This document shows positions 28,891 to 45,103 of a DNA stretch of 64,000 nucleotides, piece after piece (within the stretch, counting starts at the first letter, position 1; the number at the start of each line of letters is the position of its first letter). Position numbers and translations under genes: made by a program. Under the pieces are notes generated by a model. It made no database searches, was not told where the DNA came from, and worked only from the letters and a program-made list of their open reading frames with translations. The DNA is from Planctomycetota bacterium (GTDB lineage Bacteria; Planctomycetota; JAJSAM01; JAJVHW01). The stretch lies in NCBI GenBank assembly GCA_965248445.1, contig CBDFJG010000003.1, positions 1,600,001-1,664,000 on the forward strand, in the 5' to 3' direction.

Positions 28891-29162
28891 TGAATGACAT
28901 GGGTTACAAGATCGACGAAAAGTAGCTCGTGGGGAGGCTCTGGGGGTAGCGGAAACGGCGTATCTGCCGTAACCGCAAGAGCTTCGGCGAGTCGAGCAGC
29001 CTTCGTCCCGGGGTCCGCCCACGCGCGACACGTCGCGTGTAGTCGAGCCTGGCCAACTGTGCTCGGCCTCATCGGTGGACCCATAGTCCGCCCCCCGACT
29101 TTGGGCGAGGCGGCGGAGGCGGACGAGCGCCGCGTCGATGAAGCCCTGCGGGAGATTCTCCC

Positions 29163-29354
29163 GTGAAGCGCCACATCCCCAGAGGCGTGGCCACCCGCGT
29201 CATGCTCTGCGGCCTGACCCGCCACGAGGTCAACGACCGGGTCTTCATGCCGCGGGACCTGCCGATGGACCTCGACCTGCTCGGGGACTCTCTGCGCCTC
29301 CTGTGCAGATCGGCCTGGCGCGGCGCCCCGGCGGCACTCGAGGAAGCGGCGTGA
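29163..29354 (+). CDS. Phage-like hypothetical protein
   Basis: GTGA-coupled at both ends; GGAG upstream. Confidence 0.55.
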   Translation: MKRHIPRGVATRVMLCGLTRHEVNDRVFMPRDLPMDLDLLGDSLRLLCRSAWRGAPAALEEAA

Positions 29355-29578
29355 CCACCGCCACCAGAACCCCGATCGAGTGCGGATCGACCAGCCGCTG
29401 CGGCGAGCTGGTGCTGGAGTCGGTCACCGCCCTTGGGGACTCGCTCGGGGCCCGTCGGGCTGCCCGGCGTAAGGCGAAGCGGGCGAAGGACGAGGCGTTC
29501 GAGCGGCACCGGTCCAGGTGCCCGGCTTGGTTGAGGGAAGCGGAGGCGGCTGCGGTCGCGGGAGGTTCCATTCGATGA
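29351..29578 (+). CDS. Phage-like hypothetical protein
   Basis: GTG 29351 overlaps the previous stop; its own stop overlaps ATG 29575. Confidence 0.55.
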   Translation: MTTATRTPIECGSTSRCGELVLESVTALGDSLGARRAARRKAKRAKDEAFERHRSRCPAWLREAEAAAVAGGSIR

Positions 29579-30570
29579 AGGTCTACGTCGCTTCTTCGTG
29601 GCGCAACACGATCCAGCCGGAGGTGGTTGACGCTCTCCGTACCGCCGGCCACGAGGTCTACGACTTCAGGAACCCGGCTCCGGGCAACAGCGGCTTCGCG
29701 TGGTCGGACCTCGACCTCAAGTGGAAGGAGTGGGACGACCACGCGTACCGGGAGGCGCTGGATCACCCTCTCGCGAGAGAGGGCTTGCGCCTCGACATGA
29801 CGGCGCTCCGCGGATGCGAGGCGTGCGTTCTCGTACAGCCGTGCGGGATCAGCGCACACCTCGAGTTCGGCTGGGCCGTTGGGGCTGGCCGCCTCGGTGT
29901 TGTCCTGCTGCCCGGGGTACGGGAGCCGGAGCTGATGATCAAGATGGCGGACGTTCTCTGCCTGTCGATGGACGAGGTGATCGCGGCGCTGGCGTCGGCG
30001 CCGGAATGCGCCGCGAAGGACGCGCAGCTCGCCATGCAGGAGCCCCCGACGGGCCTCTCTATCGACATGCAGGCCAAGACCGTCGGGGCGCTGATCGGCA
30101 TGGTCTGTCAGGACCTGGATGGCCACGAACCCGCCGAGCTGGAGCGCGAGTTCGGCATCAAGCCCCCGCACCGTGAGTTCGTGTCCGTCCACCTGGGCTT
30201 CCACGCCGAGGCACTCCGCGTCCTCGGTGCGCTCGGGGTGATGGACATCGACGACCGTGGTGGGCGATGCGTACTGGGCGACTCCGTCCGCGAGGACGTG
30301 CTCGACCTGACCGGGGTCATCCCGGGATGGAAGGGTGGACAGGCTCCCCGGATTGAGCCCGCCGTGGCCGCCGCCGCCTCGCAGCCCTCCGCCTACATGC
30401 CGGACTTGTCGTACCTGGCAAACCAGGCGGCCCTAGCCCGCGAGGCGACCGCCTCCGTCCGGCTGGACGGGGAACCGCCCGCCGTCGATGAACGCGCCGA
30501 CCTCGTGGACAGCGCCGGTGTCGGGGCGGAAGAGGACGGGGTGGACGTGCACCCGGGGGAGGGTAGCTGA
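29575..30570 (+). CDS. Nucleoside 2-deoxyribosyltransferase-like domain with C-terminal extension
   Basis: MKVYVASSWRN...GHEVYDF...DMTALRGCEACVLV...SAHLEFGWAVG; GGAGG RBS before ATG 29575. Confidence 0.7.
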   Translation: MKVYVASSWRNTIQPEVVDALRTAGHEVYDFRNPAPGNSGFAWSDLDLKWKEWDDHAYREALDHPLAREGLRLDMTALRGCEACVLVQPCGISAHLEFGWAVGAGRLGVVLLPGVREPELMIKMADVLCLSMDEVIAALASAPECAAKDAQLAMQEPPTGLSIDMQAKTVGALIGMVCQDLDGHEPAELEREFGIKPPHREFVSVHLGFHAEALRVLGALGVMDIDDRGGRCVLGDSVREDVLDLTGVIPGWKGGQAPRIEPAVAAAASQPSAYMPDLSYLANQAALAREATASVRLDGEPPAVDERADLVDSAGVGAEEDGVDVHPGEGS

Positions 30571-30619
30571 TGGGCGCACTCCGGAGCTGCGCCTCGCCCG
30601 AAAGCCCCAAGGTCCCCGC

Positions 30620-30919
30620 GTGAAGTTCCGCGGCACCGAGATGGCCCAGAGCGACGCAGGCCACGGTCTGCACCTGTCCTACTGGGACGAGGACAGCCAG
30701 ACGGACGTGGTCGTGGAGTGCCGCCAAGGCCCGGCGCATGCGCACGTGGGTGGCCCATGGGGGACCGCGTCCGTCCTGCTCCAGCGTCTCCCCGACGAGA
30801 CCCGCGAGGCCGCGTGTCGCCGCGCGCTCGCGGCGATCGAGCGGGTCGTCCCGCCGCAGGAGACCGAGGACCCGTGCAGGTGCCTGATCTGCGAATGGGA
30901 GGTGCTGGGTGTCGGTTGA
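30620..30919 (+). CDS. Phage-like hypothetical protein
   Basis: GTG 30620; C-terminal CRCLIC. Confidence 0.5.
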   Translation: MKFRGTEMAQSDAGHGLHLSYWDEDSQTDVVVECRQGPAHAHVGGPWGTASVLLQRLPDETREAACRRALAAIERVVPPQETEDPCRCLICEWEVLGVG

Positions 30920-31115
30920 CCGCATCCAGGAAGAGGAGGTGCTGGTGCTTCGGCGCGCTGTCGCTGGGGGCGCTCGCGGTTTCTCGACGAGGCGGTGGGA
31001 CGCCACTCCCGTCTGGCACCTGGCGCACAGAGGCTTGCTGCGCTGGGAGCCAAGGCTGATGCGCTACCAGGTGACGACGAAGGGTCGCTCGTGGCTCGGG
31101 GAGCACGACGCGTGA
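30909..31115 (+). CDS. Small phage-like protein, possibly winged helix
   Basis: GGAGG RBS; LAHRGLL...YQVTTKGRSWL pattern. Confidence 0.55.
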   Translation: MSVDRIQEEEVLVLRRAVAGGARGFSTRRWDATPVWHLAHRGLLRWEPRLMRYQVTTKGRSWLGEHDA

Positions 31116-31327
31116 GCGGACCGCGCTACCCGTCGCCAGCGGACATGAAACGGCTTCGGTCGATGGCCCTGGTCGTGGCGGAACTCGGTAGGGATGTGGA
31201 CGTCGAGCACCTCCGAGACATGGACCCCAAGAGCACCGCGTACAAGCTGCTGCGCCGCTGGACTGAGGAGCTGATCTACCGGGACCTGCCGTGGATGCTG
31301 AAGCGGGTGGTGGAGGGTTGGCAGTGA
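31112..31327 (+). CDS. Phage-like hypothetical protein
   Basis: GTGA-coupled; GGAG RBS. Confidence 0.55.
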   Translation: MSGPRYPSPADMKRLRSMALVVAELGRDVDVEHLRDMDPKSTAYKLLRRWTEELIYRDLPWMLKRVVEGWQ

Positions 31328-31560
31328 ACCGCCCCGTGCCCTTCCGAGTCGTCTTCCGTTGCGCGGAGGGGCGGGTGTACGTGCGGCACCACGCGCCGGA
31401 CGGCGAGAACCGGAGGGTGACGGGCCCGTACACCGACATCACGGACGCGTGCATGTACCTCTGTCGCTTCTGGCCTGACCAGGTGCCGATGGTGGAGCGC
31501 GGTTCCCACGGCGAACGCAGGGTCGCGCTGCCGCCACACGCTGAGGAGTGCGACGCGTGA
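31324..31560 (+). CDS. Phage-like hypothetical protein
   Basis: GTGA-coupled; GGAGG RBS. Confidence 0.55.
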   Translation: MNRPVPFRVVFRCAEGRVYVRHHAPDGENRRVTGPYTDITDACMYLCRFWPDQVPMVERGSHGERRVALPPHAEECDA

Positions 31561-31606
31561 AGACGCCACCGCGCGAGATCCTCGCCTCACTCGATCGGAG
31601 ATCCCC

Positions 31607-32175
31607 ATGACCACATGGATCGGCCACTGGGTCGTCGTCCTCCCTCCAGAGGAGCCCCCTCTCTCGAGCTCCATCACGATGGACGTGTTCTCCGAGGCCG
31701 ACAGGGACGCGCTCCTCCGCTGCAAGACGGGCTCCGTGGCCTACCAGGTCGCCGAGCTGCTCAAGGGGAAGGCGGAGCCGTTCCAGCTCGACGAGGACGA
31801 ACAGAAGCCGGGGGAGAAGGGAACCGGTACGTCCCAGGGCGGGGCGCCGGCGGAGGACACAACACAAGGAAGAGATCCGACCGAAGGGGACAACACCGAG
31901 CCCGACCCCGGCACCCCGCCGAACCGATGCTTCTGCGGCCGCCCGAGTCGTCGTCTGAAGGTCGTGTTCTACCGACCCGTGAGCCCTCCTACTCCTTCAC
32001 CTGCCCCTGGTGCGAGAGCCGGATCGAAGTGGCGATCGAGGACACGTACGCGGGCCTTCACGCCGCTCCGAGCCTTCTCGGCTGGGCCTGGGACATGCAC
32101 GTCGTGGAGTACCACGGGATGAAGCCGAAGCGAGAGCGTAGGACCTGGCCGTGGGAGGAGGAGCCGTGTGGCTGA
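31607..32175 (+). CDS. Phage-like hypothetical gene(s); frame ambiguous after about 31980
   Basis: ORF 31607..32122, plus an alternative-frame CPWC-containing tail ending at 32175. Confidence 0.4.
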
Positions 32176-33406
32176 TCCCCTCCGCGTGTTGTCGCTCTTC
32201 TCCGGTATCGGCGGGCTCGACCTCGGGTTCCACGCCGCCGCCCGACGAGTGGATGTCGCTCCTGTCGCAGTCGGCTACGTGGAACGGGAAGCACTCTGCG
32301 CCGCGGTACTGGCGTGCGCGATGGAGGTCGGCGACCTGGCTCCGGCGCCTCTGTTCGTCGGTGACGTTCGAGAGTTCCCTGCCGAGGATCTGGCGAGGGC
32401 GGTGGACGTCGTCCTCGCCGGCTTCCCCTGCCCGCCCGTCTCCGCCGCCGGGAAGCGCGGGGGCATCGACGACGAGCGGTGGCTCTGGCCCGAGGTTGTC
32501 CGCGTGGCTCGAGAGTCTCGGGCTCGCTACATCGCCATCGAAAACCCCGTCGGCATCCTCACGTCCAACGGGGGGCGGGAGTGGGCGGCGGTCCTCGGCT
32601 CGCTGGCCGAAGGCGGGTTCTCTGCGGAATGCACGAGTGTCTCCGCGTCGGATGTCGGAGCGCCGCACGGTCGCGCCCGGGTCTTCCTTCTGGCCCACGC
32701 CCAGGACGATCAGCGGTGGACCGGAGAGCGCGGAGAGGAAACAGGAACTCGGGCGATCGAACGCGGGCGGCGGGGATCTCCAAGCGGCGGTGTTGCTCTG
32801 GCCGACGCCCAGGTCCTCCGACGGGCCGAAGGGCGGCCCGAACCAGCGGGGGAGCAGCGGGGACCTGATGCTGCCGAGTGCGGCGATGGCGTGGCCGACG
32901 CCCCGTGCGAACGAGCGGAACCAGAGCAACTCGCAGGATGCGGGCGTGGCCTTGAGCCGAGCCGTGAACGACTGGCCGACGCCGGGAGCAGCCGACGCCA
33001 AACAGGTCAAGGCGCACAAGGGTGGGAACCCGTCGCTCCACCACGCAGCGTCGTTGTGGCCGACACCGAGCGCGAACGACCACAAGGGCTCGTATCGCCC
33101 GGGCCAGCGCCGCGGCCAACTGAGCGAGGCGGTGGAGACTGGCCCCTGCCCTGGCCTCCCGGCTTCCGAGGAGACGACGACCGATGGGCTGCTGTTCTCG
33201 GCCATCGCCCTGACCTCGCACCCCGTCTGCCGACTGTCGCCGCGCTTTGTGACCTGGCTCCAGGGGTTCCCCCCGGGTTGGTGCGAGCCGTGGAGCAGGC
33301 CATGAGCGACCGCACGTTGAAGCTCCGGGCTCTGGGGAACGCCATCGCGCCAGCGCAGGCAGAGGCGGCGTTCCTTGAGCTTCTGTCTCGGGGGTCCACG
33401 GGATGA
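32168..33406 (+). CDS. DNA (cytosine-5) methyltransferase, alpha chain (motifs I-VIII and X)
   Basis: LSLFSGIGG (I), LAGFPCPPVS (IV), IENPVG (VI), GAPHGRARVF (VIII), LRALGNAIAP (X); motif IX absent from this frame. Confidence 0.9.
   Translation: MADPLRVLSLFSGIGGLDLGFHAAARRVDVAPVAVGYVEREALCAAVLACAMEVGDLAPAPLFVGDVREFPAEDLARAVDVVLAGFPCPPVSAAGKRGGIDDERWLWPEVVRVARESRARYIAIENPVGILTSNGGREWAAVLGSLAEGGFSAECTSVSASDVGAPHGRARVFLLAHAQDDQRWTGERGEETGTRAIERGRRGSPSGGVALADAQVLRRAEGRPEPAGEQRGPDAAECGDGVADAPCERAEPEQLAGCGRGLEPSRERLADAGSSRRQTGQGAQGWEPVAPPRSVVVADTERERPQGLVSPGPAPRPTERGGGDWPLPWPPGFRGDDDRWAAVLGHRPDLAPRLPTVAALCDLAPGVPPGLVRAVEQAMSDRTLKLRALGNAIAPAQAEAAFLELLSRGSTG
32652..33305 (+). CDS. Putative beta chain of the C5 methyltransferase in an overlapping frame (WPTP repeats and motif IX)
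   Basis: ATG 32652 gives MSERRTVAPGSSFWPTP; five WPTP repeats; RLSPRFVTWLQGFPPGW matches motif IX; lies wholly inside the alpha gene. Confidence 0.7.
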   Translation: MSERRTVAPGSSFWPTPRTISGGPESAERKQELGRSNAGGGDLQAAVLLWPTPRSSDGPKGGPNQRGSSGDLMLPSAAMAWPTPRANERNQSNSQDAGVALSRAVNDWPTPGAADAKQVKAHKGGNPSLHHAASLWPTPSANDHKGSYRPGQRRGQLSEAVETGPCPGLPASEETTTDGLLFSAIALTSHPVCRLSPRFVTWLQGFPPGWCEPWSRP

Positions 33407-33452
33407 AGGCGAAGCCGGAGCCCCGCAGGACCTGGCCGTGGGAGGGACGCCG

Positions 33453-34932
33453 ATGAGCGGAGACCTTCGCCGGCCATGGTGCTGCGTCGAGCCGCGGTGC
33501 ACCGCCATCCACCAGCTCGCGAACCGCTCCGACCTGAGCGACGCGCGTCCAGGGGACTCGTTCGCCTGCTTTGGGATCATGCCCCAGCAGATCGTCTTCA
33601 CCTACGACGGCGACCGGCACGAGAACGACCTCCGCTCGTGCGTCTACACACCGCTCAAGGGCATGGTGGCGTGGCAGGAGAACGCCAACGACTGGGCGAT
33701 GATGCGGGACGCCTACACGGCGGCGCTCGCCAAGCTGGAGGACGGTTCGCCGGGGCGTGCCCATCCACCTGAGCCGGACAATCTGTGCGGGTGCGGCGCT
33801 CCGACCAACCCTCGATACGGGTGCGTGGTCTGCGGCGGAACGGGCGAGGTGCCGTCCGGCATCGGGAGCCACTCGGGAGAGCGCCGCGTGACCACCACCC
33901 GCATCCTGGTGGGCGACGTGCTCGACCGCCTCTCGGAGATCCCCGAGTCGTCGATCCACTGTGTTGTCACGTCCCCTCCCTACTGGGGCCTCCGGGACTA
34001 CGGCGTAGAGGGCCAGATCGGTCTGGAGGCGACGCCCGAGGAGTACGTGGAACGGATGGTGGCGGTGTTTCGGGAGGTCCGGCGTGTCCTGCGGGATGAC
34101 GGGACGCTCTGGCTGAATCTCGGGGACTCGTACGCTGGCGCTCGGCGCGGTCCGGAAGGCGACCTGTCCACCCTTCAGGGCAGCCGGAGCTCCCAGGCGG
34201 AGTCGCGCCGCGCGCAGCGGGCGATGACCGCCTCCCGCCGGCGCGATGATCATCCGAGCCCGAGGTCCGACGTCGATGTCGCTGGACTCAAGCCGAAGGA
34301 CATGATCGGGATGCCTTGGCGGGTGGCCCGCGCGCTACAGCTCCCGGACCTACAGTGCGTCGGGTGCGAGAAAGAGGCGCCAGGGGTCCTCTGGGGCCGC
34401 CAACCCTCACGGGGAGGCTTGATCTGCCCGACGTGCTACTGCTCCACCGGGAACAGAGTCGTCCGGCCCGGGTGGTGGCTCCGCTCCTGCATCGTCTGGG
34501 CGAAGCGCTCGTGCATGCCGGAGAGCGTGGCCGACCGGCCGACGACGGCGCACGAGTTCATCTTCCTGCTCACCAAGAGCCCCGCGTACTTCTACGACGC
34601 GGACGCCATCCGAGAGCCCGTGTCGGGCACGGCCCACGCGCGCGGGTCCGGCGTCAACCCCAAGGCGCGCGCGAACGGCGCCAACGTGAAGGGCCAGCGG
34701 ATCAAGCAGAACGAGAGCTTCTCCGCCGCGGTGTCGGGACTGGTCTCATCCAGGAACGCCAGGACCGTCTGGACGATCAACTCGCAGGCGTTCCCGGAGG
34801 CGCACTTCGCGACGTTCCCCGAGGAACTTCCGAAGCGGTGCATCAAGGCGGGGACGAGCGATCGGGGGTGCTGCCCTGGGTGCGGAGCGCCGTGGGAACG
34901 GGAGGTGGAGCGCAGCGGCGCGCCTGAGAAAC
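33453..34932 (+). pseudogene. N6A/N4C DNA methyltransferase (beta class), 3'-truncated by IS3; alternative start GTG 33888
   Basis: ILVGDV, CVVTSPPYWGLRDY, DGTLWLNLGDSY, HEFIFLLTK, AHFATFP. The SAM-binding DPFxGxG motif is missing because IS3 begins at 34933. Confidence 0.85.
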
Positions 34933-34987
34933 TGGAGTTCCCCCGGTTCGGTGGACACCCGACCACTGAGGTTGGGAGGATGTCCAG

Positions 34988-35302
34988 ATGCCCAGATCGA
35001 GACCACCGTACGACGAGGAGTACAAGCGCCAGATCGTCGAGTTGCACCGCGCCGGCCGGAGCGTGATGAGCCTGTGCCGCGAGTTCGAGCCGACGGAGAT
35101 GACGATCCGCAAGTGGATCAAGCAGGCCGCGCTGGACGCCGGAGAGCGTGACGACGGCTTGACCACCGCGGAGCGCGATGAGCTGCGCAAGCTCAGACGA
35201 GATGTGCGCCGGCTGCGCGAGGAGCGCGACATCTTGAAAAAAGCCGCGGCCTGGTTCGCTCGGGAGACGCGCTCGATCCCAGAGAAGGGTTCGGGTTCGT
35301 GA
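34988..35302 (+). CDS. IS3 transposase OrfA
   Basis: HTH region YDEEYKRQIVEL...TIRKW; leucine-zipper-like end ERDILKKAAAWF. Confidence 0.92.
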   Translation: MPRSRPPYDEEYKRQIVELHRAGRSVMSLCREFEPTEMTIRKWIKQAALDAGERDDGLTTAERDELRKLRRDVRRLREERDILKKAAAWFARETRSIPEKGSGS

Positions 35303-36156
35303 GCGATCACCAGGCAGAGCACGACGTGGCCACCATGTGTCGGGTCCTCGGCGTCTCGAGGAGCGGGTACTACGCATCGCGCGGCCGTGCGCCCTCGAAG
35401 AGAGATCGCGAGGACGCTGCCCTGACCGAGCGCGTCCGCGAGATCCACGAGCGCTCTCGCCAGACGTACGGATCACCGCGCATCCATGCCGAGCTGCGCT
35501 ACGAGGGCCTCCACATCGGTAGGAAGCGCGTCGAGCGCCTCATGCGCCAGGCTGGGATCGAGGGCGTGAGCCGCCGCAAGAGAGCCAAGACCACGAAGCG
35601 CTCGCAGCGTCAGGCGCCGGCCGCCGACCTGGTCGATCGCGACTTCACGGCCGACGCACCCGATCAGCTCTGGGTGGCCGACATCACGTACGTGCCGACC
35701 TGGACGGGGTTCCTGTACCTGGCGGTCGTCCTCGACGTCTGGAGCCGCCGGATCGTCGGCTGGTCCATGGCCACGACGCTCCACACCAAGATCGTGCTGG
35801 ACGCACTCGAGATGGCCGTGCGCCAGCGCCAGCCCCTCGGAGTCGTCCACCACTCCGACCAGGGCTGCCAGTACACGTCGCTCGCCTTCGGGCGGCGCTG
35901 CAGAGAAGCGGGCGTCAGGCCGTCCATGGGATCGGTCGCAGACGCCTACGACAACGCCATGTGCGAGAGCTTCTTCGCCACGCTCGAGACCGAGTTGATC
36001 GACCGCACCAGCTTTTCGACCAAGTCCGCAGCGCGGTTGGCGGTGTTCGACTTCATCGAGGGCTTCTACAATCCGCAGCGGCGACACTCCTCCATCGAGG
36101 ACCTGTCGCCCATCGAGTTCGAGAGGCGGCGACGGCCGGAGGCCGCCGTATCATAG
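35299..36156 (+). CDS. IS3 transposase OrfB (DDE)
   Basis: WVADITY, HHSDQGCQY, DNAMCESFF, YNPQRRHS. Confidence 0.95.
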   Translation: MSDHQAEHDVATMCRVLGVSRSGYYASRGRAPSKRDREDAALTERVREIHERSRQTYGSPRIHAELRYEGLHIGRKRVERLMRQAGIEGVSRRKRAKTTKRSQRQAPAADLVDRDFTADAPDQLWVADITYVPTWTGFLYLAVVLDVWSRRIVGWSMATTLHTKIVLDALEMAVRQRQPLGVVHHSDQGCQYTSLAFGRRCREAGVRPSMGSVADAYDNAMCESFFATLETELIDRTSFSTKSAARLAVFDFIEGFYNPQRRHSSIEDLSPIEFERRRRPEAAVS

Positions 36157-36189
36157 TCCCCGGGTGTCCACCGAACCGGGGGAACTCCA

Positions 36190-36563
36190 AGCAGCGCTTC
36201 GCAATAGACGATGTCGGCGCCCGTATTCGGTCTGTACACGGTCACTCCGTGGCTGTTGGGTGCGTCGGAGAGCCTACGACGCCACCCGCCGTTCTCTATC
36301 ACGGGACCCATCGCCGAGCACTGCGTCGGATTCTCCGTGAGGGTATTCGGCCCATGCGCCGGCAACACGTCCACCTGTCCGCAGACGCCACGACTGCCAG
36401 GCACGTCGGCTCACGACGCGGAGACTCGGTCATCTTGCGTGTCGATGCCGCAAGACTCCACGCGAGCGGAGCTCAGTTCTTCGCGTCTACGAGTGGCGTT
36501 TGGCTCACGGCGAGTGTGCTGCCTGCGTACCTACATGTCCTTGCGGGCGCGGACGCGTCCTAA
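36190..36563 (+). pseudogene. kptA: 5'-truncated RNA 2'-phosphotransferase (KptA/Tpt1)
   Basis: QRFAIDDVGARIRSVHGHS...LYHGT...RQHVHLS...GVWLT; N-terminal RH region absent; begins at the IS3 right end. Confidence 0.85.
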
Positions 36564-36693
36564 CGCTCTCGCGCGGCGAGCGATGCGCCAGCATGGTCGG
36601 TCGTGCCCGGGCGGAGTTCGTGTCTCTGCCCGTCAGACGGAGCTCGGTTGGTCCCGTGCGTCGCGCGGAGAGCAGCAAGGTGCAGCCCGAGTG

Positions 36694-38225
36694 GTACCCG
36701 TTCAGCCCTTGGTTCTGAGCTCGGATCCAGATCGCTTTCCGTTCGGTCGATGAATCGGATGTGGGCACCGATGAGCTGCGTGATCTGGTCGAGCGCCTGA
36801 CCCGTCGTCTGGACGCTCGGGACGAGACGATTGCCGAGCAGGCGGAGGTGATCGAGCGGCAGGCGGCACGGATCGACGATCTCGAGAGCCGTCTTCGCCG
36901 GGACTCCCGCACCTCCTCGCGCCCACCGTCCTCGGATCCGTCGTGGTCCAAGAAGCGGCGGCGGCGCAAGCCGCCGTCGGACAAGCGCCAGGGTGCGCAG
37001 CCCGGCCACAAAGGGGCGACGCGCAAGCTCGTGGACGAGTCCGAGGTCGATGGCGTAGAGGACCACCGCCCGCGCGAGTGCAGCGCGTGTGGGAGCGACG
37101 TGCTCGTCCCGATCGATCGCGCCCCGACACGCCAGCAGGTCTTCGAGGTCCCGCCACGGCTGATCCAGGTGACCGAGCACCGGTTGCACCGGGCACGGTG
37201 CACGGACTGTGGCGCCACGTCCACTGCCTCGCTGCCAAGCGGTGTGACGGCGAGTCCCTTCGGCCCGCGACTCTGTGCGCTCACCGCGGCTCTGGTCGGC
37301 GTCTTCCGCCTGTCGCGGCGCGAGACCAGTCGTCTGTTGCGTGACGTCATCGGCGTCTCGATGTCACCGGGCACGGTCAGTGCGATCGAGGAGCGGGTGT
37401 CGGGAGCCATCTCCTCAGCGCACATCGAGGCCCTCGGGGCCGTACGCACGAGCAGCGTCGCCTATGTAGACGAGACACCGTGGTCGCGTCGTGGCACGCT
37501 GCATTGGCTGTGGAGCGCGGTCTGTGAGCACGCCACGGTCCATCGTATCGATCGGCGCAGGAGCGCCAAGGCCATGCGGCGACTCGTGGGCAAGCGCTTC
37601 AGGGGCGTCCTCGTGACCGACCGTATGGGCGCTTACGACCAGCATCCCACCGAGCGCCGCCAGATCTGCTGGGCGCATCTCGAGAGGGACTTTCGAGCGC
37701 TGGCCGAGGGCTCGCGCGGCGGCCGGCGCTTCGGCAAGCAGGCCGTGCGTCTCGCCCAGGCTGTCATGCGAGCTCAGCGTCACTTCGGCGAGCACGGGGA
37801 CCGCGACCGCATGCGGCGTGAGCTGCGTCTCACATGGGACCGACTCCTGACGCTGCTCGTGCGCGGCGCAGACAGCAAGCACCGCCGAGTACGCGGAACG
37901 ACTCGGCATCTGCTCGACCGAGCGGAGGCTCTGTGGACCTTCGCCGACGTCCCTGGCGTCTCCCCGACGAACAACGCCGCTGAGCGCGCGGTGCGCAAGC
38001 CGGTCCTGTGGAGACGCGCAACGCACGGAAGTCAGAGCGAGCGCGGACTCCGCTTCGTCGAGCGCATCCTGACCGTCACCGCCACGCTCCGCCAGCGTGG
38101 CGAGAGCGTCTTCGATTACCTCGCAGACGTCAGCGCGGCACTCGCGCACAACCGCTCGCCGCCGGCTCTCGTCGCGCTCCCGATCACGCGCTGAGGCCGC
38201 GGATCGTCATACCCTGAACGGGTAC
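36694..38225 (+). mobile_element. IS66-family single-ORF element (ISBst12-like), 1532 bp, with 8-bp target duplication
   Basis: Inverted repeat GTACCCGTTCAG...CTGAACGGGTAC; CCCGAGTG at 36686-93 and 38226-33. Confidence 0.95.
36761..38194 (+). CDS. IS66 transposase
   Basis: SSRPPSSD, GAQPGHKG, CSAC/CTDC, VDETPW, QICWAHLER, PTNNAAER. Confidence 0.95.
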   Translation: MGTDELRDLVERLTRRLDARDETIAEQAEVIERQAARIDDLESRLRRDSRTSSRPPSSDPSWSKKRRRRKPPSDKRQGAQPGHKGATRKLVDESEVDGVEDHRPRECSACGSDVLVPIDRAPTRQQVFEVPPRLIQVTEHRLHRARCTDCGATSTASLPSGVTASPFGPRLCALTAALVGVFRLSRRETSRLLRDVIGVSMSPGTVSAIEERVSGAISSAHIEALGAVRTSSVAYVDETPWSRRGTLHWLWSAVCEHATVHRIDRRRSAKAMRRLVGKRFRGVLVTDRMGAYDQHPTERRQICWAHLERDFRALAEGSRGGRRFGKQAVRLAQAVMRAQRHFGEHGDRDRMRRELRLTWDRLLTLLVRGADSKHRRVRGTTRHLLDRAEALWTFADVPGVSPTNNAAERAVRKPVLWRRATHGSQSERGLRFVERILTVTATLRQRGESVFDYLADVSAALAHNRSPPALVALPITR

Positions 38226-38241
38226 CCCGAGTGGGCCCGTC

Positions 38242-39693
38242 TCACTCCCGCGCGAGCAGCTCCGCGGTTCCCACGAGCGCGCCGCGCGCGTGCTCGTCCA
38301 ACCGCTCCCAAGCGACCAGAAGGGCGGCGAGACGCGAGTCGCGGGGAGTCGTCGGACGGCCCTCGCGAGCGCTCCCTCCATCGAGTGGCGTACTGCGCCG
38401 ACGCGACGGCTTGTCGCTCACAGCCGCCGCGTCCGTCCCCGTGGCACGCACGGCCTCGATCTCCGGCTGCGCTCCGACGTCCGGCAACCTCTCGATCGCC
38501 TTCCGATCGTCATCCCGCCCGAGCACCGTGTAGACGTTCGCGGTCAGGACCGGCGTGCTGTGTCGCAGGAGCCGCTGCGCGAGTTGCAGTGCAACGCCGC
38601 CGCGCGCGAGGTTCGTCGCGAACGTCACGCGCAGGCTGTGGAAGTCCACAACGCGGCCGGCGTCGTCCTCGTAGGGGATCTTCGCGACTTCGAGGTCAGC
38701 GCGCAGCATCACAGCGGCGCGGAAGTCCTTCGGGAGCGTGAAGACCCGGGCGGCCGGAAGCCGCTCGCGAACGTGCGTGCGGAGAGCGGCAGCCAGATTG
38801 AGCCGAAGCGGCAGATGCGCCTCGCGGCGGTTCTTCGTGTTCGTCGCACGGACGTTCACGGTGGCGCGATCGATGTCGGCGATGTCCAGGTCGGCGACGT
38901 GGAGGGTCTTCATCTCGTTCCTGCGCAGGCCCGTCTCGGCGGCCATTCGGTAGAGGAGCGCTCGTTCGGGTCCGGGGATGCCGCCCTGGCGCTCGGCTCC
39001 CGTCGATCCATCGCGCGGGAGACCCTCCGCGGTCTTCGCCAGGAGTCGCGCCAGTTCGTCGGCCGTGAGCGCACGTCGCTTCTGCGTGCTCTGGACGTCG
39101 AGTGGTCTGAGCACTCGGAGCGGGTCCTCGCTCGCGAACGCCGTGCGCACCGCCCAGCGACTGAACTGCCGGACGGCCTGCAGGTGGAAGTTGCTCGGGC
39201 TCGGGCTGACCCCGCCCTCGCGTTCGCGTTCGGTCTGGAGGAACTGCTCGACGTGCGTGGCGTCGATCTCGCTCCAGTAGTCGGCACCGATGCCGGACAG
39301 CACTTTCCTCGCCCGGCTTGTCACCAGCCGGACGTGGCCCTCGGTGTTGCCGCGCGCCCGCAGGTGTGCCTCCCAGTCGTCGAGCAGTTCGCCGAGCGGC
39401 CGGAGGGCCGCGACCTGCGTGGCTGTCAGCATCCCGCAGTCGGACAGCCGGTCCCGGAGCGCTGGAGCCAGATCCTCGATCCAGCGCCGCATCTCCTCGT
39501 CGGGCGTGGCTGCTGTGGCTCGGAGTGCGGCGAGCCGCTTGAGCTTGCGTTCGAACTCCCGTGACGCCGGGCGGTCCGCGAAGCCGGGGAACCGCTGGCG
39601 CCGACCGAGGTGGTCCTTGAACTCCACATGCCAGCGCTTGGTGCGGCGCTGCTCGCCGTTCCGGTCGCGGTAGTTCAGGCGGAAGACGCTCAT
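38242..39693 (-). CDS. Tyrosine recombinase/integrase
   Basis: TGLRRNE, TKNRR, DFHSLR, LRHS, NVYT catalytic set. Confidence 0.95.
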   Translation of the reverse strand: MSVFRLNYRDRNGEQRRTKRWHVEFKDHLGRRQRFPGFADRPASREFERKLKRLAALRATAATPDEEMRRWIEDLAPALRDRLSDCGMLTATQVAALRPLGELLDDWEAHLRARGNTEGHVRLVTSRARKVLSGIGADYWSEIDATHVEQFLQTEREREGGVSPSPSNFHLQAVRQFSRWAVRTAFASEDPLRVLRPLDVQSTQKRRALTADELARLLAKTAEGLPRDGSTGAERQGGIPGPERALLYRMAAETGLRRNEMKTLHVADLDIADIDRATVNVRATNTKNRREAHLPLRLNLAAALRTHVRERLPAARVFTLPKDFRAAVMLRADLEVAKIPYEDDAGRVVDFHSLRVTFATNLARGGVALQLAQRLLRHSTPVLTANVYTVLGRDDDRKAIERLPDVGAQPEIEAVRATGTDAAAVSDKPSRRRSTPLDGGSAREGRPTTPRDSRLAALLVAWERLDEHARGALVGTAELLARE

Positions 39694-39953
39694 CGATCAG
39701 ATTCCCACGCGTGGCGTGGAGGGCACCTTCGCTCTACCCAGCGAAGGAGATCAAGTCGTGTCCAACGCCGCAGGCGGCCTATCTGGATCGGGCGCGGAAC
39801 CTCTCCTCGGGCGTCCCAGCGGTAGAAGACCGAACGGGAGATGCCGAGCAGGGCGGCGGTCTGCGCGGCCGAGAGGAGCAGCGGCGCGTCAGCCATTCCC
39901 GCGCCGACTTCGACGTTGGGGTTCGGGGCCTGCTTCTCACGGCGAGTGGTCAC
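39690..39953 (-). CDS. AlpA/excisionase-like HTH protein
   Basis: LLSAAQTAALLGISRSVFYRW...VPRPIQIG..RRW; coupled to the integrase. Confidence 0.85.
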   Translation of the reverse strand: MTTRREKQAPNPNVEVGAGMADAPLLLSAAQTAALLGISRSVFYRWDARGEVPRPIQIGRLRRWTRLDLLRWVERRCPPRHAWESDR

Positions 39954-40018
39954 GGCGACCTACCGGGCCCGCGCTTCCACCGCCATGTCGGCGGGGTCAA
40001 CTGGGTCGCGGAGAGAGC

Positions 40019-40372
40019 TCACAGGTACCGCTCGAGGTACACGAGCATCGGGACGGTTCGACCGGGGAGTTCGGCGAGGTGCTCCTGACGCGACACCCGC
40101 GGCTCGCGCGTCAGCTCCCAATCGAGGTCGACCGGCAACACCGCCCTCAGCAGTGCGCCGAGGTGTTCGAGCGGTACGCCGCCCTCGGTGGCGTCGACTG
40201 CGTCGTACTGAGCCAGGGAGAAGATCACGTGGAAGTGCCGGTCGCGCATGGCCGGCCGGAGATTGACGCTGGTTTCAACCTCCTCGTCCGAGCCGTGAGC
40301 GGTGGTGGCGACGCCCCCTTTGTCGCCCGTAGGCGCGAGATCGATGAGACGAAGCGCGTCATCTAGCGTCAT
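40019..40372 (-). CDS. Hypothetical protein
   Basis: GGAGG RBS; co-oriented within the element. Confidence 0.5.
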   Translation of the reverse strand: MTLDDALRLIDLAPTGDKGGVATTAHGSDEEVETSVNLRPAMRDRHFHVIFSLAQYDAVDATEGGVPLEHLGALLRAVLPVDLDWELTREPRVSRQEHLAELPGRTVPMLVYLERYL

Positions 40373-40526
40373 CGAGGGACCTCCGTTGCGACGCGAACAG
40401 GGAGCGCGTCGCGGGGTTCACTGGCGGCGTCCGACTCGCGCTGAGTGCGACTTCGTGGTTCGCTCGCGACGCGCGGCAGGCCGGTCCGGATGCCGCCGCG
40501 ATAGCGTGAGTTGACGAGGAGTGGCG

Positions 40527-41753
40527 TCACGCTGGCCTCCGCTCGGCCTTCTCGCCCGTGTAGTTCTCCCAGCGGTCGACGCTCACGTCGCACCAGGCGG
40601 GGTCCAGTTCGACGCCCGCGCATCTCCGGCGCGCGCGCGTCGCTGCGATGACCGACGTGCCGCTGCCGAGGAATGGGTCGTAGACCAGGTCGCCCGGCTT
40701 GCCGTGATTTCGCATCGGGCGCTCCATGCACTCGACGGGCTTCTGTGTGCTGTGAGTTGTGCTGCCGGTGTCATCGGCGCGAGCGATGTTCCAGACAGTC
40801 GATTGCTTGCGGTCCCCACACCACGCAGCTGGGCGGCCCTTGCGTACCGCGTACCAACACGGCTCGTGCTGCCAGTGGTAGTGACCGCGGGAGATCTGCA
40901 GCGACGGCTTGGCCCACACGATCCCCGCCCTGATCTGCAGTGAGGCGGAGAGCAGTCCCTCCGCCACGTCCCACGAGTGCAGACTGGCATGCCACACGTA
41001 CGCAACGTCGCCGGGGAACAGTCGGTAGGCAGCACGCCAGTCGGAGCGGTCGTCGTTCAGCACCGCTTCGGTGCGACGGACCGACGAGCCGAGACCACCG
41101 TCGGCGGATGAGCGTGCTCGCCACGCGGGGTCGTACTCCACGCCGTATGGCGGGTCCGTCACCAACTGGAACGGAAGCTCACCATCGAGGACTCGGGCCA
41201 CGTCCTCGGCGTTTGTGGCGTCGCCGCAGAGCAGACGGTGCTCCCCGAGCACCCACAGGTCACCCGGCTTCGTCACGGGATCAACTGGCGGCTCAGGGAC
41301 CTGGTCTGGATCGGTCTCACCCGAGACCGGATCCAATAGCCGTGTGATCTCGGCGTCGGTGAAGCCCGCCACCGAGTGGTCGAAGTCCGGCGCCTGCTGC
41401 AACTCGGCGAGCAGTCGCCCGAGTGCGTCGTCATCCCACCCGGCGAGTTCCGCTGACCGATTCAGCGCGATCCCGAGGGCAGTGGCGTTCAGGTCGTCGA
41501 CGTCCACCTCGACAAGGTCCACGCCGCCCACGCCCATCTCTCGCAGAACGGCGACACGGCCGTTGCCGCCGATCACGCGTCCCGTGGACTTCTGGACAAC
41601 GATTGGCTCGACCTGTCCGAAGCGCTCGAGGCTCGAGCGGATCGCGTTGAGATTGCGGGGATCGTGGGTGCGCGCGTTGGCGGGGTCGAGTGTCAGTTCG
41701 TCGAGTCGACGTCGGACGACTGCGAGCTCGGGGGTGGCGGGGGCGCGGGTCAT
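40527..41753 (-). CDS. ParB-like N-terminal domain fused to DNA adenine/N4-cytosine methyltransferase
   Basis: PANARTH...SLERFGQVEPIVV...IGGNGR (ParB); HRLLCGDAT, TDPPYG, HSTQKPVE, YDPFLGSGT; start reset to ATG 41753. Confidence 0.92.
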   Translation of the reverse strand: MTRAPATPELAVVRRRLDELTLDPANARTHDPRNLNAIRSSLERFGQVEPIVVQKSTGRVIGGNGRVAVLREMGVGGVDLVEVDVDDLNATALGIALNRSAELAGWDDDALGRLLAELQQAPDFDHSVAGFTDAEITRLLDPVSGETDPDQVPEPPVDPVTKPGDLWVLGEHRLLCGDATNAEDVARVLDGELPFQLVTDPPYGVEYDPAWRARSSADGGLGSSVRRTEAVLNDDRSDWRAAYRLFPGDVAYVWHASLHSWDVAEGLLSASLQIRAGIVWAKPSLQISRGHYHWQHEPCWYAVRKGRPAAWCGDRKQSTVWNIARADDTGSTTHSTQKPVECMERPMRNHGKPGDLVYDPFLGSGTSVIAATRARRRCAGVELDPAWCDVSVDRWENYTGEKAERRPA

Positions 41754-41992
41754 CGCTTGAGCTCCTTCAGCTTCCGCGCTGCGAGCGCGTTCATCACCGC
41801 AATGGCCTCGGGAGCGACGCTCCCGTCCTCGCGAACAAGTCCGTGCCGCAGTAGGACGGCGCCGAGCTTCTCGGCCGCGACAATCGGCACGCCGGCGCAG
41901 AGCGCCCACGCGGCGGAGGTGTCCTCATCAGGGCGCTCCTGCATCACCTCCGCAACGTGCGGCCACGCGATCGCGAGCCGCTGCGCGGACAC
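41750..41992 (-). CDS. Hypothetical protein; start uncertain
   Basis: Stop overlaps the MTase ATG. Confidence 0.5.
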   Translation of the reverse strand: MSAQRLAIAWPHVAEVMQERPDEDTSAAWALCAGVPIVAAEKLGAVLLRHGLVREDGSVAPEAIAVMNALAARKLKELKR

Positions 41993-42047
41993 GTCGCTGG
42001 CAAGGTGTGCGACTGCGATGGCGGTCAGACTGAGTTCGGGAATGCGT

Positions 42048-42542
42048 TCACCTCGCCGAGTGCCTGGTGGCGGGTCCGAGGATGCGCTCCCTTGCGGTGA
42101 GACCGGCGGTCGGGAGCGATGGAGTGGTCGCGCGAACCGTGGTCCGCGCGGACGGAGAGAGCCCGAGTTCTCGAGCAGCTGCGAGCAACTGTGCTCTGGC
42201 CGACGCCGCGAGTTGCGTGTACGGAGACGTGAAACTCCGGCCGTGCGTGTCGATCAGTACGCCGCCCTCGACACGCAGTGCGTACTCGGCTCGGGCGAGT
42301 TGAGACCAGGCGGTGGTGTAGGTCGTCAACACCGCCCGGTCGATCACTTCGAGCAACCCACGCCGAACGAGTTCCGGAACGAGTCGGTCCCACTCCGCGC
42401 GGGCAACGTCATCGAGAAACTCAGGCGGGTCGGGCGCGCCCGGGATCACGGGCGGCTCACTGGGGTTGCTGCGGCACGGTTGGTCCGTTCCACGGAGCCG
42501 CTTCACAGCGGTCGGCAGTGGCTTCGGTCCTCGCTTACCCAC
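42048..42542 (-). CDS. Phage terminase small subunit, P27 family
   Basis: RGPKPLPT..KRLRG, PPEFLDDVARAEWDRLVPEL, ELGLSPSAR. Confidence 0.9.
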   Translation of the reverse strand: MGKRGPKPLPTAVKRLRGTDQPCRSNPSEPPVIPGAPDPPEFLDDVARAEWDRLVPELVRRGLLEVIDRAVLTTYTTAWSQLARAEYALRVEGGVLIDTHGRSFTSPYTQLAASARAQLLAAARELGLSPSARTTVRATTPSLPTAGLTARERILGPATRHSAR

Positions 42543-42599
42543 TATTGAGACCTCCGACGGTCAGGCCGTCGTGTGCGTGCGCGTACGCATGCGCGCCCG

Positions 42600-42710
42600 C
42601 GCCACGCGCGGGAACTCCGAAACCTGCACGCGCGGGAAGTTGGGTGATCCACCGGTCTACGGGCGCGAGGTGCCAGAGATCAGACCCCCCTCCCCCCCTC
42701 GCCAGGGGGG
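42600..42710 (-). other. Putative cos/packaging region upstream of terS
   Basis: GGGGGGAGGGGGGTCTGATCTCT...TAGACCG, then a 12-bp direct repeat TTCCCGCGCGTG (42603-14 and 42627-38). Confidence 0.45.
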
Positions 42711-42962
42711 GCAGCCGGTTGCTGATCGCCTTCAAGTCGGAGGTGTGAGCACGCTCGGCAGCACTCGCCTCCAAGCCGCGGACCAGACGACGCCAGGGAG
42801 ACGGACTCTCGAGTAGTTCACTCGCCGCGCCACATCCGGACGCGGCGAGGAGGAGACTCCAGACTGACCAGTCCTGACGCATGACGCGTCCTGACGCCTC
42901 CGCCGCAAAGCAGCCTTCGCGCGCGCGTTGAGTAACGGTTGTGAAGCACGAGTCATGAGGCG

Positions 42963-44731
42963 TCATGCGTCAGGACTCCTCTCGACGAGTGGGTCGGCGC
43001 GCAGCCTCACTCCCAACCAGAGCCGTGCCTTCTCGGTGCGCTTCTGCCCGAAGCCCCGGTCTCGCAACTCCCGCGCGAACGCCCGACTCCCCAGCGCCTT
43101 CTCGCCTGCGCGCTCAGCGAAGTCCTTGTAGGCGTGGAAGAGCACCGACCCCGCGACGCTGGCGTGTGCGTCCAGCTCGCACGCTGCGAGCAGGAAGGGC
43201 CCAAGTGCGTCCTCGGCGGCCCTGTACTCGGAGGTCGCCCCGGTCACGGCCGATGCCGTCCCGAGGCGGTGTCGCTGGTACGCGAGGCAGCCGCGAACGG
43301 CCCAGGCCAGAATGCCAGGACCCTCCGCCTGCAGTGTCGCCGCAAGGTGCGGATCGGCCCGGTCCCCGAGGAACTGCTCCTTGAACGGCAGGAGCTTCAC
43401 GCGGCGCCACGTGCCGTCGGAACTGTCCCGGATCGACGGCCTATGATTCGTCGAGAGGAACAGCGTGAACTTCGGCTCGAACTCGAAGTGCTCGCCGAAG
43501 AGGAACCTCGCTGTCTGCCTCCCGCCGCCAGTGATCCCCTTGACAGTCGCTTCGTCCAACCGACGGTCGCGTCCGGGCTCCTCGGCTGTCACGATCCGGG
43601 CTGGGGCGAGGCGCGCGAGGTCATTCCGCGGTCGCGAGACGTCGCGTCGGCGGAGGAACGTACTCGCCTCCGCATGGATTGCGTACGTACCAAGCATCCA
43701 CTGCAGGGTCCGTATCAAGACCGTCTTGCCGTTGCTGCCGGCGCCCCATAGCAGGACGATGAGGTGCTCGAGAACGACGCCAAGGAGCGAGTAGCCGACG
43801 AGCCGCTGGAAGTAGCAAATCAGGTCCCCGTCACCCGCAAAGACCTCCATGAGGAACCGCTCGAATCTCGGGGCTGTGGCATCCTGATCGAACGCTACCC
43901 CCGCCTGTCGGGTGATCAGGTCCTCGCGCTGATGCGGCCACAACTTCCCGGTCCGAAGGTCCAGCAGACCATTCGCAACCGAGAGCACCCACGGGTCCGC
44001 GTCGAGTTGGTCGGCCCAACGGTCACTCCGGAACGGCTGGCGGTGAGGTGTAGCGCGGCGGTGAGCGCGCGGTGGCTCTCGGACCGTTGGGCGAACTTGA
44101 GCAACTCGTCCCGCCGGTCCTTGTTGTCGATATCCGCAGCTGCGCGGGACAGCGCTCGCGCGGTGTCCCCGGCGCGGCGCAGTGCGGCGCCGTCTGTGTC
44201 GGTCTCCCACAGGCCACGGTCCTCGCTGTAGACGAGCCACTTTCGCTCCGCGGCGTGGAAGCGCATGTCCGCGCCGTGGACCGCGTGGATGCGTTCCGCG
44301 AATCCGAGCTCCGTGCATGGCGCATTGACGAGGACGGAGGCAGCGTCGCGCCGGTCAGCCGCCGAGGTGACGAGCCTGAGATGGCGCTCCCACTCCCTCA
44401 CCGGAAGGTCGCTCGAGACGAGGCCGGCAACGAGACCGACAGCGTCGGACACACCGCGCTGCCGTAGTTCCTCGGTGACGCGCACAACGTCCGGTGTGCC
44501 ACCGTCCGTAGACGCCCGCAGCGCGTCGTGAAGTCGCCGGCGGAGGTGGTGTGTCTGATGGCTGCGCGAAGTCCGCGCAAGGATGGCCTGAGCCGCCTCG
44601 TTGTCGAGGAAGCACGCCCTCAACAGCGCTGCCTCCGACAGAGCCGGCGCACCCGGTACTTCTGTGCCGGTCAGTAGATCGTGAGCGCCGGCCATCGCCA
44701 CCGCGGCGCCGTTGAGACGGGCGCCCGTCAC
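42963..44731 (-). CDS. DnaB-N-like domain fused to P4/D5-family SF3 helicase; apparent 1-nt frameshift at about 44015-44017
   Basis: N-terminal part SEAALLRACFLDNEA...DVVRVTEELRQRG and TELGFAERI. C-terminal part LDADPWVLSVANGLLDLRTG, Walker A GAGSNGKT, VKGITGG, GTWRRV. The frames join if GGG is read as GGGG. Confidence 0.85.
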
Positions 44732-44991
44732 GACGGCTCCGCGACTGTCTCGGGTCGTCCACCGTCGGGACACCCTGCAACGTCTGCCAGCAACTCCGCG
44801 ACCGCTTCCCGAGGGACGCGCACGTGCGCGCCTGGTCCGTGGCCGAGTTTCACAGCGCGAAGGCGACCCGCGGCGATGTAGCGCTTGACCGTTCGCGGGT
44901 CGACGTTGAGGGCGCGCGCGACCTGAGCTACGCGTGCCAGTGGTGGGAGATCGAGTTGCAGGCGTCTGTCCGGGCGATGCATGACCGACAT
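44728..44991 (-). CDS. Excisionase-like (HTH_17) DNA-binding protein
   Basis: VAQVARALNVDPRTVKRYIAAGRLRAVKLG; stop overlaps the helicase GTG. Confidence 0.85.
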   Translation of the reverse strand: MSVMHRPDRRLQLDLPPLARVAQVARALNVDPRTVKRYIAAGRLRAVKLGHGPGAHVRVPREAVAELLADVAGCPDGGRPETVAEPS

Positions 44992-45103
44992 ACTGACCCC
45001 CCGTTTCGCGGGGTCGGTCTGCAGCGCGGGAGAGCCCGAGCGCGTGCCTAGCGAGTGGCCAGGCCGCTCACTTGCGGCTCCCCGGTACACACCTTGGCGT
45101 GGC

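Follow-up and report, generated by a model that had tools for sequence, protein, structure and literature searches.

The methyltransferase gene at 32168..33406 of the window (the whole 64,000-nucleotide stretch of Planctomycetota DNA analysed here) carries a second, shifted reading frame along almost its entire length, and comparison with related sequences indicates that this two-frame layout is real, conserved and under selection in both frames. The best explanation overall, which we regard as probable, is that the two chains from the overlapping frames form one cytosine C5 methyltransferase, with the catalytic domain coming from alpha, and motif IX and five likely recognition cassettes from beta. 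The parts of this explanation differ in strength: a two-chain enzyme is highly probable, recognition carried by beta is quite probable, and a separate specificity for every cassette is an even call. C5 methyl transfer to cytosine by alpha and beta together is the likely function predicted for the pair. The features of the two chains are as follows.

32153..32163, plus strand: Shine-Dalgarno sequence GGGAGGAGGAG, likely common to the interleaved GTGTG start codons at 32166-32170, as judged from the sequence and from paired starts in relatives
32166..33305, plus strand: beta chain, +1 frame, 379 aa from a putative start at GTG 32166
32166..32690, plus strand: beta N-terminal region over the alpha catalytic domain, open and with amino-acid constraint in relatives
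32168..33406, plus strand: alpha chain, 412 aa, an open reading frame with motifs I-VIII, a filler middle and motif X
32198-32215, plus strand: alpha motif I
32420..32434, plus strand: alpha motif IV, GFPCP, with the catalytic Cys88; PCP replaces the usual PCQ
32537-32548, plus strand: alpha motif VI
32666-32686, plus strand: alpha motif VIII
33231..33281, plus strand: motif IX-like RLSPRFVTWLQGFPPGW, beta frame
33323..33361, plus strand: motif X, alpha frame, downstream of the beta stop codon

The alpha frame has the catalytic hallmarks of a C5 methyltransferase: motifs I-VIII, the Pro-Cys nucleophile, Glu-Asn and Arg-x-Arg. PF00145 covers alpha residues 6-182 only (profile positions 2-166 of 324, E 1.3e-28) and phrog_363 matches residues 4-403. 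The assignment of motifs I-VIII and X to the main frame in the original prediction is confirmed. No motif IX was found in the alpha frame at 32168-33406. Motifs IX and X do follow the variable region, as in C5 methyltransferases, but they do so in two different frames. The names given to the motifs at these positions are established knowledge. The middle of alpha, unlike its catalytic domain, is not conserved. When PF00145 was compared with both frames, a check proposed at the outset, the match was to alpha; beta had no match in Pfam or NCBIfam, and the +1 frame was matched by phrog_1008 (E 4.5e-18).

From stop to stop, the +1 frame extends over 32142-33305 (387 codons) and contains no stop. 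Its GTG at 32166 sits 3 nt behind the Shine-Dalgarno sequence, a strong one, and 2 nt upstream of the alpha GTG at 32168, and the same MW(L/I)xxP-type N-terminus opens beta in relatives. In 14 hand-picked loci with the MW-type N-terminus, the window included, the beta start lies at -2 (seven loci), +4 (five) or +7 (two) relative to that of alpha. Among 111 loci picked without hand selection, all with a +1 frame open from the front, a beta start codon falls within -2 to +7 nt of an alpha start in 71, against 20 of 111 for the +2 control frame. In 70 more of the 188 complete loci, beta opens inside the catalytic domain, and 65 of these 70 have a start with a loose Shine-Dalgarno-like motif, an uncontrolled count. 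Both N-termini of the relative L154 are the same as those of the window, and in GenBank the beta ORF itself is an annotated feature of Acidovorax phage Alfacinha3, beginning at its MWLYIP start. The Shine-Dalgarno sequence at GTG 32166, the paired starts in relatives and the Alfacinha3 annotation make a beta of 379 aa from GTG 32166 most likely. ATG 32652, a candidate for the main beta start, was rejected as it has no Shine-Dalgarno-like motif. The shifted frame had been predicted to span 32652-33305, with five WPTP repeats and motif IX; repeats and motif are present, and it is the start that has to be revised. With the start at GTG 32166 rather than ATG 32652, the overlap of about 1138 nt exceeds the 650 nt over which both frames had been described as open and includes the whole catalytic domain.

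A family profile of motif IX aligns collinearly but weakly with M.HhaI 271-309 (1.3 bits), and a beta profile gave no meaningful match among PDB sequences. The ESM Atlas returned C5-methylase clusters for beta at 0.93-0.94, a result that was set aside, since reading a genuine gene out of frame may produce scores of this kind.

Taken by itself, the locus is weak evidence for dual coding, since in this GC-rich gene synonymous resampling of alpha leaves the +1 frame open by chance in 9% of cases with genome codon usage and in 2.6% with the gene's own usage. It is conservation across relatives, not the single locus, that proves dual coding. A search of viral contigs with an alpha profile matched at least 600 stretches, of which 566 were confirmed and the best 80 used. 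Motif IX lies in the +1 ORF and motif X in alpha in 65 of these 80, which is not an unbiased family frequency because most of the loci used to seed the profile had originally been located through beta. Of the remainder, four have both motifs in the +1 ORF, five are cut by the contig end and six were unclassified, the main layout being visible by eye in five of the six. Over the catalytic domain, the +1 frame is open in 47 of the 80 loci against 0.6 expected, and the +2 frame in none; stops in the +1 frame number 141, against 609 expected. The open frame is seen again in 12 of 18 clusters when the relatives are grouped at 60% identity and in 27 of 40 at 70%; for the last 100 codons, an open +1 frame is present in 75 of 80, versus 4 of 80. 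Constraint on beta is also evident in an alignment of 55 sequences, where the synonymous codons of alpha fit the beta residues (Pro61 is CCT in 42 of 52, Glu41 is GAA in 43 of 45), and where alpha position 83 varies while the beta Leu is kept in 40 of 55.

The layout extends to bacterial genomes. The motif IX pattern was found at 117 loci in genomes of several phyla; 43 of these, most of them with short flanks, were dropped as they had no catalytic-domain match, and of the 74 that could be classified 65 have the same layout, three have motifs IX and X in alpha and six are otherwise different. The beta piece has 1402 relatives of similar length, with a Pfam family in none of the 120 matches listed. 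Among 40 relatives of the host genome a match was found in three, one of which (G012) has a full two-frame gene.

Frame crossovers of every kind occur: nested as in the window, like M.AquI, with motifs IX and X in alpha alongside +1 cassettes, and single-chain. In four loci (L237, L268, L028 and L030), alpha has both IX and X, and the +1 frame still has five to nine cassettes and ends before IX; these loci suggest that beta can act purely as a cassette-bearing subunit. A second alpha subfamily with another N-terminus (YYNE-type, in P2-like phages and plasmids; L004-L006, L331, L332 and L334) has the same +1 beta, with cassette types common to the subfamily of the window. Of the 14 loci obtained with a single-query search of the alpha catalytic domain, 13 were excluded as another short methyltransferase-like family; the short phage methyltransferase-like proteins retrieved with the alpha query (L037-L049, about 200-270 aa stop to stop) have PPC and ENP motifs.

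Database records usually annotate one of the two frames, and are inconsistent with one another at L052 993-2159, L050 1038-2394 and L053 1045-1974. The Alfacinha3 record gives beta alone, labelled as a methyltransferase, that of Arthrobacter phage TaylorSipht has two adjacent genes with an M.AquI-like split, and that of Sc-Yong805-2 a single hypothetical CDS over the dual region. In mycobacteriophage Tweety (L051 613-3065), two small genes lie between two annotated methyltransferase genes, the first of which contains a short +1 ORF with one cassette, which suggests an interrupted member of the two-frame family.

The region of beta between the catalytic overlap and motif IX holds five cassettes, each beginning at a WPTP in the +1 frame.

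32691..32798, plus strand: beta cassette 1 (type 3), with counterparts in distant relatives at 81-85% identity
32799..32891, plus strand: beta cassette 2 (type 7), which single-chain methyltransferases also carry in-frame
32892..32972, plus strand: beta cassette 3, matched at 60% identity or more by part of the sequence in 23 of 240 fetched proteins
32973..33056, plus strand: beta cassette 4, with no relative at 60% or more among the 240 fetched proteins
33057..33140 (end approximate), plus strand: beta cassette 5 (type 36), sharing 81% identity with one of the cassettes of L154

At the same threshold and in the same 240 proteins, cassettes 1, 2 and 5 have relatives in 166, 78 and 37, respectively. 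Across 258 deduplicated loci, 771 cassettes were cut (0-8 per locus, median 35 aa), which fall into 262 clusters and follow a common grammar: W-P-T-P-x-A-x-D, a variable loop, then L-x3-(A/V)-x-(M/L). In all 25 of the largest cassette types substitutions peak at the third codon position of beta (mean 0.23/0.20/0.57) and identity is higher in beta than in alpha. Substitutions in the cassettes thus follow the beta frame, which makes the middle of alpha a by-product. Together with the open +1 frame, this answers the proposed check of frame-specific conservation in favour of dual coding.

The cassettes are also shuffled. Cassettes of type 3 are 87% identical in 145 pairs of loci with catalytic domains less than 45% identical and occur at array positions 1 to 4, although these loci were picked with a pattern from that cassette, and the counts are not unbiased family frequencies. 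Conversely, catalytic domains agree at 75% identity or more in 441 pairs, of which only 140 have an array in common, part of the differences being pattern misses or broken loci. Cassettes differ between close relatives in type, order and number, and eight loci show, on inspection by eye, clean cases of cassettes gained, lost or swapped (for example L084 versus L093 and L003, L007, L015). The junction between cassettes shows conservation of its DNA sequence, and its translation is acceptable in either frame, so that in-frame recombination there could change the specificity and break neither gene. The beta-type proteins P0128 and P0236, of 885 and 1095 aa, have a dozen or more cassettes, and one beta-type protein in the group P0128, P0236 and P0170 is fused to a PF05869 adenine methyltransferase domain.

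Single-chain relatives place the cassettes within the order of motifs. PF00145 and cassettes occur in one chain in 18 of the 120 longer relatives among the matches listed, and in 10 of these 18, relatives of window cassettes 1 and 2 included, motif VIII, cassettes, IX and X follow in order by pattern; the majority of the single-chain relatives occur as singletons, and assembly frameshifts could account for some of them. In C5 enzymes, the target-recognition region lies in this interval between VIII and IX, according to the accessible text of PMC3404938. From the selection on the beta frame, the shuffling and this position in single-chain relatives we infer multiple recognition modules, in keeping with what had been suggested from the window alone. 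An AlphaFold model of one single-chain relative, P0183, is confident for the catalytic domain and motifs IX and X; the cassettes have a pLDDT below 50, so that the model gives neither a fold nor a position for them. A Foldseek search with this model matched M.HhaI (E 2.6e-14, 165 columns); only the catalytic domain aligned, and the match is therefore mute on the cassettes.

The copy in the window lies in a run of short ORFs that follows a phrog_12607 gene. Its surroundings are given below.

29518-30570: phrog_12607 nucleoside deoxyribosyltransferase-like gene
33453-34930: N6/N4 DNA methyltransferase directly after the C5 gene, interrupted by an IS3-family element
34932-36190: IS3-family element, with inverted repeats near 34932-34962 and 36158-36190
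36761 and 45171: IS66 elements
38242-39693, minus strand: integrase
40527-41909, minus strand: second N6/N4 methyltransferase
42963-44318, minus strand: D5-type primase piece

From this content, the island at 29100-46600 is a decayed prophage or integrative element disrupted by insertion sequences. The original prediction of a phage version holds insofar as many phage relatives have the layout, but the setting is not an intact phage. A KptA piece lies 3' of the IS3 element and is not the continuation of the interrupted N6/N4 methyltransferase. No restriction enzyme gene was recognised among the neighbouring ORFs scanned, the genome has one other C5 methyltransferase, which is single-chain, and scans for promoters, terminators, tRNAs and Rfam families gave nothing beyond chance.

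The family might work as proposed while the window copy is a silent or weakened relic, a reading compatible with the best explanation at the level of the family and, in our estimate, rather unlikely. It draws on the interruption of the next gene by IS3 and on the two IS66 elements and partial primase nearby, as well as on the divergence of the chains. The window alpha departs from 16 of 66 conserved columns (median 6), as many as in only 1 of 54 others, and is joint most divergent of the 55; PCP and ENP, both present in it, are rare (3 and 2 of 188, respectively). Several near-invariant positions of the beta motif IX differ. Against this, both frames are intact over 1138 nt, the catalytic Cys88, Glu125-Asn126, Arg169 and Arg171 are kept, and the deviations of beta are typical (5 of 28 positions, with as many in 26 of 54 others). 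PCP is also present in MtbP of SPbeta, and L154 shares the start arrangement of the window and part of its divergence.

A less probable alternative, which we consider unlikely, accepts the two-chain enzyme and questions the cassettes, which would not be independent units of specificity: they would act jointly or redundantly to yield one relaxed specificity or a general affinity for DNA, or only the cassette adjacent to motif IX would be used. Several observations are in line with it. The TL consensus of recognition domains is PT[ILV] (PMC2413257), and this was found in 7 of 771 cassettes, with PTP in 528; the profile of the cassette junction matched MtbP of SPbeta only at its PTL motif (314-324), at -2.8 bits versus a shuffle maximum of -2.0, so no significant similarity to the SPbeta recognition domains was found. 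The low pLDDT in the P0183 model and the dozen or more cassettes per beta in P0128 and P0236 point in the same direction, and prophage C5 enzymes of relaxed specificity exist, whether or not they belong to the two-frame family (PMC3925955, accessible portion). Opposed to it is the finding that every cassette type has a variable loop of its own, which stays highly identical in backbones less than 45% identical (87% for type 3) and wherever in the array the cassette sits; a type-specific function accounts for this better than generic binding does.

It is very unlikely that beta is an independent overprinted protein with another job and that alpha works alone. The four loci in which alpha has its own motif IX and the +1 frame keeps cassettes would agree with such independence, but the window alpha has no motif IX and a middle that is not conserved, and the same cassettes occur inside single-chain methyltransferases. 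Still more remote is a single polypeptide made through two programmed ribosomal frameshifts, from alpha into beta after motif VIII and back before motif X. The resulting order of motifs would be viable, since single-chain and differently crossed-over relatives exist; beta, however, possesses a conserved start of its own, and selection acts on beta upstream of motif VIII, and canonical -1 slippery heptamers after motif IX were found in 2 of 188 loci versus 4 of 188 in a control window, a count that concerns -1 signals only. Two compensating indels in one continuous gene, the assembly artefact raised against the original prediction, can effectively be dismissed: although the contigs of four runs come from one sample, probably the source, and are therefore not independent, they contain neither indels nor differing letters, with two running across the whole stretch, and the same partition recurs in the 65 of the best 80 viral contigs, which are unrelated, in cultured phages and in a genome of the same order.

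Under the two-chain explanation, one transcript would yield two proteins from overlapping frames, with the interleaved GTGs 2 nt apart and co-initiation at the common Shine-Dalgarno sequence giving roughly matched amounts. Alpha would bind AdoMet and provide the catalytic cysteine, its middle serving as filler kept open only to deliver motif X. The N-terminal region of beta likely docks on alpha, as deletions in the beta of M.EcoHK31I suggest (PMC2836561, in its accessible part), and beta would close the enzyme with motif IX. The cassettes might then be presented to DNA one at a time, like the tandem domains of the Bacillus phage enzymes (accessible text of PMC8936443). In-frame recombination at the conserved junction would swap specificities with both frames staying open, and the likely benefit would be protection of the mobile element against several restriction enzymes.

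To our knowledge, bacteria and phages seldom show dual coding that is full-length, on the same strand and laid over a conserved enzyme core; among the relatives sampled it is the norm. Because databases usually record one protein of the two, predictions of specificity from alpha would look at the wrong frame. Tentatively, and with a little less than even confidence, we propose that a very large phage and prophage family hides its specificity subunit in a fully overlapping frame, as a recombining library of DNA-recognition cassettes of about 35 residues, with one target each, that bacterial phyla have in common. If each cassette has one target, the 262 clusters from 258 loci would be a testable recognition code and would explain how mobile elements retune their protection against restriction. 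On mobile elements, the family would then be the equivalent of exchangeable specificity domains, overlooked in annotation, and would offer a natural plug-in code with which to program cytosine methylation; it would also place the recognition domain of M.EcoHK31I-type enzymes in beta rather than alpha.

Among known systems, the multispecific C5 methyltransferases of Bacillus phages (SPR, SPbeta, phi3T, rho11 and H2) have tandem target-recognition domains, as described in the accessible part of PMC8936443. As far as that description goes, the window family shares with them a solitary occurrence and tandem modules between motifs VIII and IX. The Bacillus enzymes are single-chain and encoded in one frame (the +1 frame of SPbeta mtbP has 41 stops), and their modules have a PTL motif, whereas the cassettes of the window family have WPTP. 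Given the outcome for the TL consensus, the window enzyme is not placed among them. M.AquI (CYCGRG) consists of two polypeptides, according to the accessible text of PMC3404938. Its type of split, with IX and X in the second chain, is seen in four of the best 80 of the 566 viral relatives and in phage TaylorSipht; the window, unlike M.AquI as described there, keeps motif X in alpha, and its two genes overlap along nearly their whole length.

The closest likeness is to M.EcoHK31I, a two-chain C5 methyltransferase that recognises YGGCCR, whose alpha contains motifs I-VIII plus X and whose beta, with motif IX, comes from an alternative frame inside the alpha gene (PMC2836561 and PMC3404938, as far as accessible). 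Deletions in its beta indicate that the N-terminal part matters for association (same part of PMC2836561). The likeness is to the published description, in its accessible portions, since no sequence of the M.EcoHK31I chains turned up in the collections searched, plasmids among them; it had been drawn in the original prediction and finds support in the split seen in 65 of the best 80 of the 566 viral loci and in these two papers. As in M.EcoHK31I so described, the window alpha has I-VIII and X without IX, and an ORF in the alternative frame with its own putative start carries IX. By this analogy, the two chains of the window likely associate, and both may be needed. Unlike that beta, the window beta overlaps nearly all of alpha, starting 2 nt upstream of it and otherwise nested within it, and has five shuffled cassettes. 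The accessible text of the two M.EcoHK31I papers predicts the target recognition domain in alpha; in the window family it likely resides in beta, selection between VIII and IX being on the beta frame in 25 of 25 cassette types. Both PHROG families, phrog_363 for alpha and phrog_1008 for beta, are labelled DNA methyltransferase, and the labels omit the two-frame pairing. No description of the phage family, the paired starts or the cassettes was found in the open literature searched, and the layout is not described in the accessible portions of PMC6536676, PMC5537653, PMC3925955, PMC12707154, PMC9957025, PMC11855218 and PMC5009743.
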